Positions 38,353 through 44,214 of a stretch of DNA of 64,000 nucleotides are shown one piece after another (the stretch's first letter is position 1; every line of letters starts with the position of its first letter). The notes under the pieces were generated by a model. That model was not told the origin of the DNA. It saw only the letters and a program-made list of their open reading frames with translations, and did no database searches. The DNA comes from a virus (Duplodnaviria > Caudoviricetes). The stretch spans positions 32,001-96,000 of the IMG/VR virus record IMGVR_UViG_3300028886_000003. One strand, written 5' to 3'. The translations under genes and the position numbers were made by a program.

Positions 38353-39059
38353 TGGTCTTCAAAACTACAATATTTACAAGCAAAGAATGGATCAACTTTT
38401 GGCGGAAAATAATCTGTATCAATTTGGTGTCTTACATAATTAATAAGTTCAAAGACAGCATCATAATCTTCTTCAGTTACATAACTACCCTTTTTTTGTT
38501 TTTCTGCAAAATTAAAACCACGATATTGTTTATCTTTTGTAAAGTATATACAAGCTGATGATACCTTATAACTAGGATATTTATAGTTTACCAATCTTCT
38601 ATATATACATAACTCTATACGATAATTAGATATTGGTCTTGATTTACCTGTTTTATAATCAATAATAAATAATTCATTAGTTTTTTTATCTCTAAGAATT
38701 AAATCAATTATTCCACGCAAATTTAATTCATCATCTTTTATGTCGCCTTCAGCACTAAAAATTTCATAATCATTGTCAGCAATATTATAAAAAAATTCTA
38801 ATAATGCTTGTGCATGTTCATCAGAATCAAAATCCTGATCATCATAAGGATAAAGTTTTAACATTTCTTTATCAACAATATCATGTGTTATTCTATCGTA
38901 CCTCATTAATTCTTTTGCGACATGTTCAGCATACTCATGCACATCTAATCCAACTTGTGCAAAAGAACTTATATCTTCTTCCATATGGTCTATATATTTG
39001 TACTTAAATTTACGTGGACATAATAAATATAAATTAAGTTTTGATTTAGATATTCTCAT
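38328..39059 (-). CDS. Cas4/AddB-like PD-(D/E)XK exonuclease
   Basis: SKS.L..Y..CP, G..VH, RGIID, IDYKTG, CKYC.F...C. Confidence 0.9.
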   Translation of the reverse strand: MRISKSKLNLYLLCPRKFKYKYIDHMEEDISSFAQVGLDVHEYAEHVAKELMRYDRITHDIVDKEMLKLYPYDDQDFDSDEHAQALLEFFYNIADNDYEIFSAEGDIKDDELNLRGIIDLILRDKKTNELFIIDYKTGKSRPISNYRIELCIYRRLVNYKYPSYKVSSACIYFTKDKQYRGFNFAEKQKKGSYVTEEDYDAVFELINYVRHQIDTDYFPPKVDPFFACKYCSFEDQCLKDGGR

Positions 39060-39802
39060 AAAGACACCACCTCTGTACTATTTATAAAAAAATCATGATT
39101 AGATTTATATTTGATAAAATCACCTGATCTAGGTATAATACCATTCAATGTATGATTTAAAAATGTTAACATACATCCAAAATCTTTAGATTCTCCATCT
39201 TGCATACATAATGTCCCTCTAATCATATCCTTTCCACTCTTAGTACGAATTTGTGTACATTCACGAATTAAAGCAAAATTATAACCCTCATCTTTCTTTG
39301 TAGGTTGATATTCTCTTAAAGTATCAATAGCAGACCCATCCATATATGCAATTTCATTACTAAAAACATCTGAGTTTAAATCATTTAAAGCAACTAACAT
39401 ACTCATAAAGAATTTTTTATTCCAAACTTTACATTTAATAATAACTGGTTCACCAACATTCAAAAAAGATTGATAATGATTAGCTAAGTCGATACTTATA
39501 TGTATACTAACATTGTGTTTTTTATTTTGCAAATGCATAATTGTCTTATATCTTTGTTTATCAACATCTGCAACAATTCCTTTAATATAACATTCATCTG
39601 TATCATTATAATCAAATGTAGATAAATCAATACACATATCATCAAAAGGAGATGTAACTGTATCTATATAATCTTCATGTGGTGAAAAAGATAATACAGC
39701 AAACTCTTTATATAATACATCTTGCTTACTATATGTTTTATCTTCATTAAAAAAGAAATTAATTAATTCAGTCCGTTTTTCAATTGTTTTCTCCATTGTC
39801 AT
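39056..39802 (-). CDS. OB-fold protein; probable C-terminal part of split DnaE
   Basis: KEFAVLSFSPH resembles DnaE EKE.LG.Y...HP; IKGIV..V and TKSGKDM OB motifs. Confidence 0.55.
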   Translation of the reverse strand: MTMEKTIEKRTELINFFFNEDKTYSKQDVLYKEFAVLSFSPHEDYIDTVTSPFDDMCIDLSTFDYNDTDECYIKGIVADVDKQRYKTIMHLQNKKHNVSIHISIDLANHYQSFLNVGEPVIIKCKVWNKKFFMSMLVALNDLNSDVFSNEIAYMDGSAIDTLREYQPTKKDEGYNFALIRECTQIRTKSGKDMIRGTLCMQDGESKDFGCMLTFLNHTLNGIIPRSGDFIKYKSNHDFFINSTEVVSL

Positions 39803-41237
39803 TTAATGACACCTCCTTGTCATAAAAGCTATTTAAAATATATTTAATTACATTTACTGTAAAAGCATTTCCCATACATTTATATCTTTGTGCATCAGAT
39901 ATTTCTTTACCATCAGCACCTATTTTTGTCCAATCATCAGGAAAAGCTTGTAAACGTTCAACTTCTACTGGAATTAACCTTCTAACTTTGAAATTATCAT
40001 CTATAGTGCCCCAATTACCTGAACATGTTAAAGCACCGATGCCTTTTGATTGTGTCCTACCCCTACCTGTAGCAGAACCAGGATGATCTAAACGTACACC
40101 ATCACCAGGATAAACTTCATCATATCCTTTTTTAGTAGCAGTTGCAATTTTTAATGACTTAGGAACTTTATATAATCCAGTTTTTGCTCCCCATCCACCA
40201 CCAAGTGCTGATTGAGTACAACTTACACCATTAGGATCTAAAATTCTTGTACCCTGTGATGATTCAGTATTAACTTTGTGCATTTCTATTTCTTGTATAA
40301 GAATATCACCACTTGCTGTAATTGTTGGAGAAATTCCTGTATCTTTATATGCTCTTTTACTTTGATCAAATACTCCTTCACGAATTTCGAATTCAGTTAA
40401 TGATTTATCAAATTCAGTTGTGTGAATATCTAATAATTCTTTTAATTTGTACCAAATTTCAGGTGTTGGAATTGCAAAACTATTATCTCTTCTGAAATAA
40501 TGTGCAGCCTGTGTAGATGGAACACCTAATTTTTCTGCAATTTGTTCGATGGTATAAGGAGATGATCTTTTCTTTTCATATATCTCCTGTTGCAAACCTT
40601 TAATATCAACTTGATGAACCCTTGCTTTAATTTTACGATTAATAATTTCACGTTGCATACGCACATCATGATCAACATCAGTTCCCATTATCAAATCTGC
40701 TGATGTAAGAGAAATATCAGGTAATTCACCATATTCTTTCAATACCCCTCTAATATATATTCTCTCACGATTCTGAGGGACACCAAAATCCTTACTGTTT
40801 AAAACATCCCAACGAACTTGGTAACCTAATTCTAATAAATTATTAATAATAACTCTAAAAGTATTACCTTTGTCGTGTGATATAAGATTTTTAACATTTT
40901 CTAATAGAAAATATCTTGGCTTTTTTTCTTTTAATATTCTAGCAATATCAAAAAATATAGTACCCCTTGTGTCATTAAAACCTTTTTGTTTACCTGCTAA
41001 AGAAAAGGCTTGACAAGGGAATCCTGCAATTAACATATCAAAATCTTCTAATTCTTTTGCATTAATTTGAGTTAAATCACCTAAATTTTTATGATCAGGA
41101 AAATGTAACTGATAAATATTATCAGCATATTTATCAATTTCTGAATAACCTATTAATTCATAATTAAATTCAGAATAATCTAATGCTAATTCTGCTCCAC
41201 CAACACCACTACAAAGTGATAATACTTTAAGCACCAT
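39780..41237 (-). CDS. dcm: DNA (cytosine-5) methyltransferase with enlarged TRD region and HTH insertion
   Basis: LCSGVGG, GFPCQ, ENV, QNRER; IEQIAEKLGV...HYF HTH; ERLQ.FP, GNAF. Confidence 0.9.
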   Translation of the reverse strand: MVLKVLSLCSGVGGAELALDYSEFNYELIGYSEIDKYADNIYQLHFPDHKNLGDLTQINAKELEDFDMLIAGFPCQAFSLAGKQKGFNDTRGTIFFDIARILKEKKPRYFLLENVKNLISHDKGNTFRVIINNLLELGYQVRWDVLNSKDFGVPQNRERIYIRGVLKEYGELPDISLTSADLIMGTDVDHDVRMQREIINRKIKARVHQVDIKGLQQEIYEKKRSSPYTIEQIAEKLGVPSTQAAHYFRRDNSFAIPTPEIWYKLKELLDIHTTEFDKSLTEFEIREGVFDQSKRAYKDTGISPTITASGDILIQEIEMHKVNTESSQGTRILDPNGVSCTQSALGGGWGAKTGLYKVPKSLKIATATKKGYDEVYPGDGVRLDHPGSATGRGRTQSKGIGALTCSGNWGTIDDNFKVRRLIPVEVERLQAFPDDWTKIGADGKEISDAQRYKCMGNAFTVNVIKYILNSFYDKEVSLNDNGENN

Positions 41238-43262: not shown

Positions 43263-43263
43263 A

Positions 43264-44214
43264 TTACCTTCTCCTTGGTTCTTTTAAGAATATTTTTTTC
43301 AATTGCTGATGTTTTGTAAAAGTTGGTAATACTCTTTTTTTACCTATATTATTGATTGATGTAACATTACATTTGTCTGCAATTATTGATGTATTTTTAA
43401 TCATTGTATCAACCAATGGTAAATCTTCAAAACCTGATTGTTCAGCAAATTGTTTAACTAATTTAGATGTACCTAAGCAATTACTTGGTAAACTTGGTGT
43501 TACATCATTTTTTTGCTTATGAAACATATCTGCTTGTAAATGACGTCTAGTATTCCTATCACTAATAAAATGTGCATCTGTAGTGGCAACACAATATTTC
43601 ATATCAATATCAGAATATAAATCTAATAGTTTACTATTAATTGTTTTTTGTGGAGGATATGCTGGGTGGAATTGAAATTCTGCCGCAACATTTTCTTTTC
43701 CAAAAACATCTAAAAGTTTATTTAAGAATGGTTCAGCTTCATGAGGAAAATGATTTTTATTGTCTGGATTAAAACATTGACCTATTGTACCTAATGAACA
43801 AGCTGTAGATATAAATAAACCTTCAGGATTATCAAATAATATTGGATATGGTAATAATGGCCTACGATAAAAATATTTTGCAGTTGATAAATATTCTAAC
43901 TTGGATAAATTTTTAGCTCCTTCATCATCCTTTGCTAAAACAACAAGATGGTATCTATTGTTATCTTGTGGTTTATCGGTTGATGGTGTGCAATAAAATT
44001 CGCATCCAAAAATTGGCTTAACATTAGTGTCCTGCCCTAATAAAAAAAACTGACTCCAACCTACTATATTACCATGATCTGTAATTGCTACCGCTTTTTG
44101 ATTATTTTTTTGAACTTCATAAAATAATTCAGGGATTTTTATTGTTGCATCTCCTTGGCTATAATCCGTATGAAGATGCAAATTAACAAAATTATCTTTT
44201 TCCATATTAATCAC
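43264..44214 (-). CDS. dnaE: PHP domain of DNA polymerase III alpha (separate gene)
   Basis: LHLHTDYS..D, AITDHG, KPIFGCE, HLVVLAK, TACSLG, TDAHF. Confidence 0.9.
   Translation of the reverse strand: MINMEKDNFVNLHLHTDYSQGDATIKIPELFYEVQKNNQKAVAITDHGNIVGWSQFFLLGQDTNVKPIFGCEFYCTPSTDKPQDNNRYHLVVLAKDDEGAKNLSKLEYLSTAKYFYRRPLLPYPILFDNPEGLFISTACSLGTIGQCFNPDNKNHFPHEAEPFLNKLLDVFGKENVAAEFQFHPAYPPQKTINSKLLDLYSDIDMKYCVATTDAHFISDRNTRRHLQADMFHKQKNDVTPSLPSNCLGTSKLVKQFAEQSGFEDLPLVDTMIKNTSIIADKCNVTSINNIGKKRVLPTFTKHQQLKKIFLKEPRRR

Follow-up and report, generated by a model that had tools for sequence, protein, structure and literature searches.

The 64,000-nucleotide window analysed here (positions 32,001 to 96,000 of the Caudoviricetes virus record IMGVR_UViG_3300028886_000003) carries on its minus strand three genes that together hold the domains of a bacterial-type family C DNA polymerase, DnaE. 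The homology of the three parts to DnaE, the conservation of the splits and the purifying selection acting on each part are established, as is the lack of another polymerase: in the complete genome (a 145,330-bp record with direct terminal repeats and a completeness rating of 100%), we found one DnaE and no Pfam match to PolB or PolA. It is likely that the three polypeptides reassemble non-covalently into a family C enzyme that is the sole polymerase and the replicase of the virus; assembly, exonuclease activity, host and replicase role are the parts of this account that we infer. An earlier note, made from the letters of the DNA, had read the locus as a PHP gene, a catalytic gene with intact PDIDTD and KxD motifs and a probable OB-fold tail gene set apart by a methyltransferase locus, with no intein motifs at the splits, and each of these readings stood up to the analysis below. 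The three genes (the second is called pol hereafter) are:

43264..44214, minus strand: DnaE part 1, PHP domain subunit, 316 amino acids (aa) from a GTG start (Pfam PHP, E 1.7e-31)
41520..43262, minus strand: DnaE part 2, catalytic core (palm, thumb, fingers and helix-hairpin-helix, HhH), 580 aa (Pfam DNA_pol3_alpha 1.6e-46, DNA_pol3_finger 3.8e-40, HHH_6 2.6e-21)
39056..39802, minus strand: DnaE part 3, detached C-terminal tail, 248 aa (profile matches to fused DnaE C-termini, hhalign and an AlphaFold2 (AF2) model)

The first two parts follow one another along a single profile. Residues 3-310 of the 316-residue PHP protein cover positions 38-345 of PHROG 405, a phage DnaE profile of 1190 positions, and residues 5-576 of the 580 in pol continue contiguously through positions 335-927. 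An ATG at 44205 (MEKDNFVNLHLH, as in relatives) is a likelier start for the PHP gene than the GTG at 44214. All nine metal ligands of the PHP domain are kept relative to Taq Pol III alpha (2hpi), namely H13, H15, D22, H47, E72, H89, C139, D213 and H215, with D22 and D213 corresponding to the positions mutated from D to N in the 3e0d sequence. Judged by these residues, the PHP subunit is probably a metal-dependent 3'-5' proofreading exonuclease. At its C terminus (window 43264-43310), all relatives share a conserved basic peptide, H-x-x-[LF]-K-x-I-F-[LFC], after an L-P-x-F motif; the peptide does not match the consensus of a PCNA-interacting peptide (PIP) box and may dock onto the core. In pol, the catalytic residues D111, D113 and D254 (PDIDTD and LKxD motifs) align with those of the Taq and M. 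tuberculosis (Mtb) Pol III alpha proteins (PDIDTD, LKMD), and overall identity to these cellular enzymes is ~31-34%. The core gene encodes what defines a family C DnaE, a Pol-beta-like nucleotidyltransferase palm with three Asp together with thumb and fingers, and HHH_6 is placed at its end.

Taken alone, the tail protein has no match in Pfam, PHROGs or PDB sequences (a PDB profile search gave chance-level hits only), and none by tblastn against 50,697 phage records. It is a member of a small stand-alone family of ~240-aa proteins, 12 of which form our alignment A1. Searched exhaustively against 1.84 billion representative proteins, the A1 profile matches the last ~225 residues of ~800-aa pol+tail proteins (E 4.7e-18 to 3.9e-9) and also the C-termini of 1200-1271-aa proteins (E 2e-8 and 1.8e-7). 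In these fused DnaE proteins, the matched stretch, which takes in tail positions 6-234, begins where HHH_6 ends according to Pfam (HHH_6 497-578 and tail match 574-799 in P0149; HHH_6 959-1040 and tail 1055-1246 in P0158, a protein in which uracil-DNA glycosylase, PHP and pol are joined). We regard this as the decisive result: because the profile falls on fused DnaE directly after HHH_6, the tail is assigned to the DnaE C terminus. Alignment A5 brings detached and fused tails together from end to end, and hhalign of A5 against the C-termini of 12 bacterial DnaE proteins (94.7%, E 6e-8) sets tail residues 19-129 on the bacterial E-K-E-x-L-G-x-Y-x-S-x-H-P motif and OB fold. Profile comparison therefore confirms the third gene as a homologue of the DnaE C terminus, with KEFAVLSFSPHE as the pre-OB motif and the first barrel as the DnaE OB fold, so that an HhH domain followed by a C-terminal OB fold is present, the latter in a separate gene.

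The predicted structure agrees with this layout, in which N-terminal helices and the pre-OB motif precede the OB fold (~68-138) and a second beta-barrel (~175-246). An AF2 model built on the A1 alignment (predicted local distance difference test, pLDDT, 83) has N-terminal helices and two beta-barrels, and Foldseek matches it to OB-fold proteins, including two-OB single-stranded DNA-binding proteins (SSBs) and HIN-200 domains. The first barrel with its preceding segment superimposes on the OB fold of Mtb DnaE1 (7pu7; VIA Z 11.1, RMSD 2.3, 96 residues), a top rank tied with the OB fold of PolD DP1; Taq Pol III alpha (4iqj) and PolC follow at Z 9.8, amid many OB (anticodon-binding) domains of aspartyl- and asparaginyl-tRNA synthetases. 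Given such ties among OB folds, the fold search by itself cannot single out DnaE.

Alignment around the pol/tail border places the fission point right after the G-A-F-D motif that closes the HhH domain, and the N-terminal helix of the tail (K9, R10, L13, F16, F17) is the helix that follows G-A-F-D in every one-piece DnaE. A complex prediction of core with tail, in line with the AlphaFold-multimer check proposed in the earlier note, returned an interface score (ipSAE) of 0.72 against 0.00 for the best control, a mark attained by 58 of 80 solved complexes and by 2 of 110 mismatched pairs; at least 92% of contacts recur between runs, with a partner pLDDT of at least 83. In the predicted interface, pol 478-577 contacts tail 1-42 and 78-97, and the N-terminal helices of the tail are docked onto the HhH domain. 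The prediction supports, short of showing, binding between core and tail. A quite unlikely alternative is that the DnaE-derived tail now works as an OB-fold single-stranded DNA-binding or accessory protein and is no stable subunit, the working enzyme being PHP plus core. In its favour, the tail has changed fastest among the three parts, two inserted genes part it from pol in the window, where it is coupled to a Cas4-like nuclease instead, and its Foldseek neighbours include the two-OB SSBs and HIN-200 domains given above. However, its invariant residues (K9, R10, L13, F16, F17 and an EF.VLSFSP motif) fall in the predicted HhH interface and correspond to a helix that one-piece DnaE has in this domain, the virus already encodes a multi-OB SSB-like protein of its own, and in six contigs the tail lies directly after pol.

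We propose, for the three-polypeptide enzyme, that its proteins would be made separately from one operon, through translational coupling at junctions that combine a Shine-Dalgarno (SD) sequence, a stop and a start, and without inteins or recoding. The parts would then reassemble non-covalently in the DnaE domain order, from PHP through palm, thumb, fingers and HhH to the OB tail. In such a complex, the N-terminal helices of the tail would complete the HhH domain of the core, and the OB fold would thereby be positioned as in one-piece DnaE, gripping the single-stranded template.

The junction between the first two genes is compact:

43260..43275, minus strand: PHP/pol gene junction, with a Shine-Dalgarno AAGGAG within the end of the PHP gene, then TAA, one base and the pol ATG

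It reads AAGGAGAAGG-TAA-T-ATG, and the PHP and pol frames lie one base apart, as they would if the splits were assembly or sequencing frameshifts or if the polymerase were a decaying pseudogene. We consider either extremely improbable, and the frameshift check set out in the earlier note comes out in favour of genuine splits. PHP, pol and tail are three genes in 11 related contigs from different samples; no single open reading frame (ORF) with all domains takes their place. Relatives have TAATG or ATGA overlaps, or an in-frame TAA-ATG, at the PHP/pol junction, each with its own SD and ATG (three geometries; frame offsets +1, -1 and in-frame). Junctions that differ, each with an SD, speak for separate translation and not for frameshifting or readthrough at a conserved signal. 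In four independent ruminant runs, one from an RNA library, contigs span the junction without gap or indel, and the short pol C terminus of the window is likewise reproduced in independent-run contigs. The ratio of nonsynonymous to synonymous substitution (dN/dS, Nei-Gojobori) in the closest pair of contigs, L003 and L008, is 0.135 (PHP), 0.091 (pol) and 0.133 (tail); with dS close to saturation, the values are rough, but all lie far below 1, and by this estimate all three parts are under purifying selection. The catalytic and metal-binding residues are all intact. Because they are kept in 11 contigs with three junction geometries, under purifying selection and indel-free in independent runs, the splits are, on comparison of these sequences, real and not artefacts of assembly.

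Between pol and tail, the window carries an inserted cassette, the methyltransferase locus of the earlier note:

41227..41511, minus strand: 94-aa ORF, first cassette gene (weak PHROG methyltransferase match at its C-terminal end, E 4.8e-4)
39780..41237, minus strand: C5 cytosine DNA methyltransferase (Pfam DNA_methylase 2.8e-80)

Five contigs (the window, L001, L003, L008 and L026) have this cassette, whereas six (L010, L011, L024/L025, L028 and two more) have the tail directly after pol, from overlapping to ~200 bases apart; because of these six, we view the cassette as an insertion into an older three-gene locus. The 94-aa ORF occurs only in the five contigs with the methyltransferase, whose start it overlaps; it may have split off from a methyltransferase or serve as an accessory protein. 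A contig from an independent sheep run has 1029 extra bases at window 40181/40182, inside the methyltransferase gene, which suggests a mobile insertion (an intron or homing element) in some strains.

Neither split holds an intein: no gene of the window has a Pfam intein match, the contiguous coverage of PHROG 405 leaves no room for an intein half between PHP and pol, and the match of tail positions 6-234 to fused tails leaves none at the second split. Pol+tail proteins of sister lineages (P0017-P0019, P0159 and L021:7001-10690) have an intein inside the palm, with Intein_splicing and LAGLIDADG_3 matches, and contig L021 has an HNH_3 gene after the polymerase. A maximum-likelihood tree of 36 core sequences (LG+F+G4), which we viewed with midpoint rooting only and treat as indicative, answers the earlier call for a phylogeny: the three-gene viruses group in one clade (100% support), closest to which are metagenomic ~800-aa fused pol+tail enzymes, some with the palm intein, and a branch of 100% support sets cellular DnaE and the phage enzymes sampled apart from them. 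Two neighbour contigs have a separate PHP gene of 298-299 aa directly upstream of a fused pol+tail gene. The likely order of events, read from these arrangements, is a one-piece enzyme that became PHP and pol+tail, then PHP, pol and tail, and last, in the sub-lineage of the window, received the cassette.

The polymerase genes lie in a replication module, most of which is shared with Methanobacterium virus PhiF1 (MK994522.1), an isolated virus of Methanobacteriales:

45641..46750, minus strand: 369-aa probable multi-OB single-stranded DNA-binding protein (AF2 pLDDT 67)
44434..45327, minus strand: RecA-like/AAA_24 ATPase upstream of the polymerase genes (PHROG 124, Sak4-like, 2.5e-7; AAA_24 in relatives; 31% identity to PhiF1 ORF60)
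38328..39059, minus strand: Cas4-like PD-(D/E)XK nuclease, translationally coupled to the tail gene (Pfam PDDEXK_1 2.2e-24; 26% identity to PhiF1 ORF56)
36990..37934, minus strand: fused archaeo-eukaryotic primase (AEP), AEP domain with PriL-type Fe-S C-terminal domain, 314 aa (37% identity to PhiF1 ORF55)
35157..35786, minus strand: ERCC4/XPF-type nuclease with HhH (Pfam ERCC4 5e-9, HHH_5 5.7e-8; colinear with PhiF1 ORF54)
34484-35155, minus strand: Transposase_20 (IS110-family C-terminal domain) protein, in all relatives and as PhiF1 ORF53
L023:4767-6578 (= G000:C1:102766-104577), minus strand: 603-aa protein with a D5_N domain (E 4.2e-5), encoded elsewhere in the genome; candidate D5-like SF3 replicative helicase

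The primase conserves FLDFD and SGRGFH motifs and invariant Cys residues, and its profile matches S. solfataricus PriL (5of3_B, 6.4e-5). Across the family, Pfam DNA_primase_lrg (PF04104) is found in 6 of 6 members (best 7e-8) and DNA_primase_S (PF01896) in 4 of 6, the matches in the window copy all falling below the curated cut-off; no separate PriS gene was found in the genome at E<=1. The archaeal-type PriS-PriL primase of the earlier note is therefore upheld as to its AEP motifs and PriL Fe-S domain and amended as to form, a single fused gene in place of a subunit pair. The chimeric replisome that it drew from this stands in so far as DnaE does sit beside an archaeo-eukaryotic primase, but bacterial-type and archaeo-eukaryotic replication parts are commonly mixed in viruses (PMC4889955). 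The 369-aa protein has no family match and is conserved upstream of the polymerase genes; the best Foldseek matches of its model are POT1, two-OB SSBs, Teb1 and RPA70 (E 5e-4 and weaker), a likeness to multi-OB SSBs that rules it out as a clamp. As the Transposase_20 protein is kept in all relatives and in PhiF1, we take it for a component of the module rather than an insertion sequence. NrdD and a dCTP deaminase/dUTPase are also encoded, and the MCM and DnaB_C Pfam models have no match in the genome. Outside the window, the genome also encodes a PcfJ-like protein (L023:12924-13886, minus strand, Pfam 9.4e-19). It is as the only polymerase amid a near-complete replication module that we read the three-part DnaE as the viral replicase; it would probably work with the AEP-PriL primase, the multi-OB SSB-like protein and the D5-like helicase.

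The earlier note placed this polymerase in an archaeal virus, which two further genes of the window speak for:

3075-4043, plus strand: structural protein with a pseudomurein-binding repeat (Pfam 3.6e-9, 36.7 bits against a cut-off of 24.9)
25629-25829, minus strand: archaeal-type histone (PF00808, 2.2e-14)

The window has a G+C content of ~27%, six tRNA genes and a long minus-strand replication operon, and DNA of the virus turns up in gut runs of cattle, goats and sheep (11 studies). Seven of its replication genes are colinear with those of PhiF1 at 25-40% identity, and among the 50,697 phage records the primase matches only PhiF1 and Haloarcula virus HCTV-16. Given the pseudomurein-binding repeat, the histone, the PhiF1-colinear module and primase matches restricted to archaeal viruses, the host is very probably an archaeon, most likely a pseudomurein-walled methanogen of the ruminant gut and probably of the genus Methanobrevibacter; the placement in an archaeal virus is well supported by these gene contents, short of proof. 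A histone search aimed at the host lineage returned two metagenomic proteins and nothing else. Were the virus instead to infect a low-GC bacterium, the DnaE genes would be just as real, no crossing of domains would be involved, and the histone and pseudomurein-binding repeat would be acquired oddities. DnaE is indeed frequent in bacteriophages (1417 of the 50,697 phage records match), and scans of 185,579 species genomes yielded no direct host link. We nevertheless hold a bacterial host to be very unlikely: the pseudomurein-binding repeat sits in a structural protein and is joined by an archaeal-type histone, the seven colinear genes are those of an isolated Methanobacteriales virus, the primase matches in the phage collection are archaeal viruses only, and one sister-lineage contig carries a STIV_B116-like gene.

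Several results weigh against a three-part replicase at work in an archaeon. The two genome scans, one with the pol protein and one with the tail alignment, found no relative among the 185,579 species genomes and so gave no provirus or other link to a host. The bacterial DnaE proteins were matched only once the fused intermediates had widened the tail profile; A1 alone, with its 12 members, reaches 33% against bacterial DnaE C-termini in hhalign, in another register that puts the second barrel on the OB fold. Sequence change has been quicker in the tail than in the core (identity of the window to L001/L003: tail 48-49%, core 72-74%), and the score of the predicted complex could in part stem from the model having learned the intramolecular contacts of solved one-piece DnaE structures. 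Nor was a sliding clamp found in the genome with the PCNA_N and DNA_pol3_beta Pfam models, or a conserved beta-like or other clamp-binding motif in the PHP, core and tail proteins of the window.

The earlier suggestion to look for PIP-box or beta-clamp motifs and for a viral clamp thus drew a blank in the window proteins and the genome but brought out a candidate peptide in relatives. Bacterial DnaE proteins in our alignment have an internal beta motif (QYDLF, QFSLF or QLSMW) between HhH and OB, in a segment of ~35 columns from which every sequence of the viral clade is missing, be it fused or split; by this alignment, the viral enzymes lack the internal beta-clamp-binding motif of DnaE. QADMF, with the letters of the E. 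coli alpha internal beta motif, occurs in the PHP gene, in a PHP helix where relatives read LADAW or QADTW, and we dismiss it as a coincidence. RTELINFF at the tail N terminus was rejected as a PIP-like box, for it aligns with the structural helix of all DnaEs and lies within the predicted pol-tail interface. In 9 of 10 relatives whose DNA was read, the core extends 12-20 residues past G-A-F-D-x-[ILV]-P and ends in QRTLEDFV, QTTLGFFK, QTTLV, QTKLM, QIKLM, QARFI or QARLC. Comparison of these Q-x-x-[LF] boxes (L001:8710-8767, L003:6235-6291, L008, L024, L026 and L028) with window 41520-41530 indicates that the window core stops ~19 residues earlier, without the box. The box resembles the first half of PIP and beta-type motifs, its aromatic pair is not conserved, and it could be a clamp- or partner-binding peptide. 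It is conceivable, though unlikely, that fission rewired a bacterial-type replicase for the archaeal cell by deleting the beta motif and exposing a new core C terminus, on which the box would serve as a PCNA-interacting peptide; if so, a family C polymerase would be riding an archaeal clamp, and the window copy would have lost the box.

The same observations bear on the role of the enzyme. With no clamp, clamp loader or clamp-binding motif found for it and the bacterial beta-motif segment deleted, the three-part DnaE might be a repair or gap-filling enzyme, with bulk replication left to host PolB/PolD and PCNA. This we hold improbable to a marked degree, for the 145-kb genome supplies a primase, an SSB-like protein, a D5-like helicase, NrdD and dCTP deaminase/dUTPase but no polymerase besides this one, the PHP proofreading site is intact, and the whole module is conserved from PhiF1 to the window virus. 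A role as the viral replicase remains our preferred reading; it raises the question of how a bacterial-type replicase functions in a cell with PCNA and PolB/PolD and without beta clamp or tau.

These findings extend to the wider distribution of family C polymerases. A 2024 survey counted 947 PolC-family proteins among 18,382 genomes and stated that archaeal viruses encode family B enzymes (PMC11348598), and viral family C polymerases had been stated in 2016 to be exclusive to bacteriophages (PMC4889955). Contrary to these statements, the present lineage and PhiF1 would make up a clade of methanogen viruses whose sole polymerase is of DnaE type. Full-text literature searches pairing DnaE or PolC with archaeal viruses or Methanobrevibacter brought up no pertinent paper, and no discussion of the PhiF1 polymerase was found in the literature searched. 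A DnaE in an archaeal virus is all the same not a first, with PhiF1 (MK994522) as its GenBank precedent; the annotation of a two-gene DnaE in PhiF1 and PHP/pol splits in phages were already known. What is new here is the identification of the third gene, so far unannotated, as a detached OB tail, together with the intermediate series, the insertion of the cassette and the loss of the beta-motif segment. In the fission series, nature has taken Pol III alpha apart along its domain borders, and the co-evolved fragments are usable for studying how PHP proofreader and OB tail communicate with the core. Often present in samples of the ruminant gut and probably predators of rumen methanogens, the viruses are also relevant to biological methane control.

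PhiF1 is the nearest known system, a family C polymerase in an isolated Methanobacteriales virus with the PHP-bearing part annotated as its own ORF; ORF58 and ORF57 are each annotated as 'putative DNA polymerase III DnaE superfamily protein'. Its module is colinear with that of the window, comprising ATPase, PHP, pol, PD-(D/E)XK nuclease, AEP-PriL primase, ERCC4 nuclease, Transposase_20-like protein and NrdD. PhiF1 differs in having a uracil-DNA glycosylase fused ahead of the PHP domain, a tail still fused to the pol ORF (1176 aa) and no methyltransferase cassette, and its polymerase, ~32% identical to that of the window, falls in a different clade of the core tree. Rhodococcus phage Grayson (genus Weaselvirus) likewise has adjacent separate genes without an intein, gp102 (PHP) and gp103 (pol+tail), both annotated as DNA polymerase III alpha; its host is bacterial, its tail is fused, giving two pieces rather than three, and it lies on the cellular and phage side of the tree.

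Bacterial DnaE1 works with the beta clamp and tau, and the PHP domains of the Taq and Mtb enzymes are exonucleases. The window enzyme shares with these proteins (Taq 2hpi/4iqj; Mtb 5lew/7pu7) the PHP, palm-thumb-fingers, HhH and OB domains, the nine PHP ligands and the Asp triad; they differ from it as single polypeptides of 1160-1220 aa with an internal beta-clamp motif of Q-x-S-L-F type. In cyanobacteria, the two halves of DnaE are encoded by separate genes and ligated by protein trans-splicing through a split intein. The viral locus resembles this arrangement in building a replicative DnaE from more than one gene and departs from it in that its splits have no intein halves, inteins occurring only inside the pol of sister lineages.

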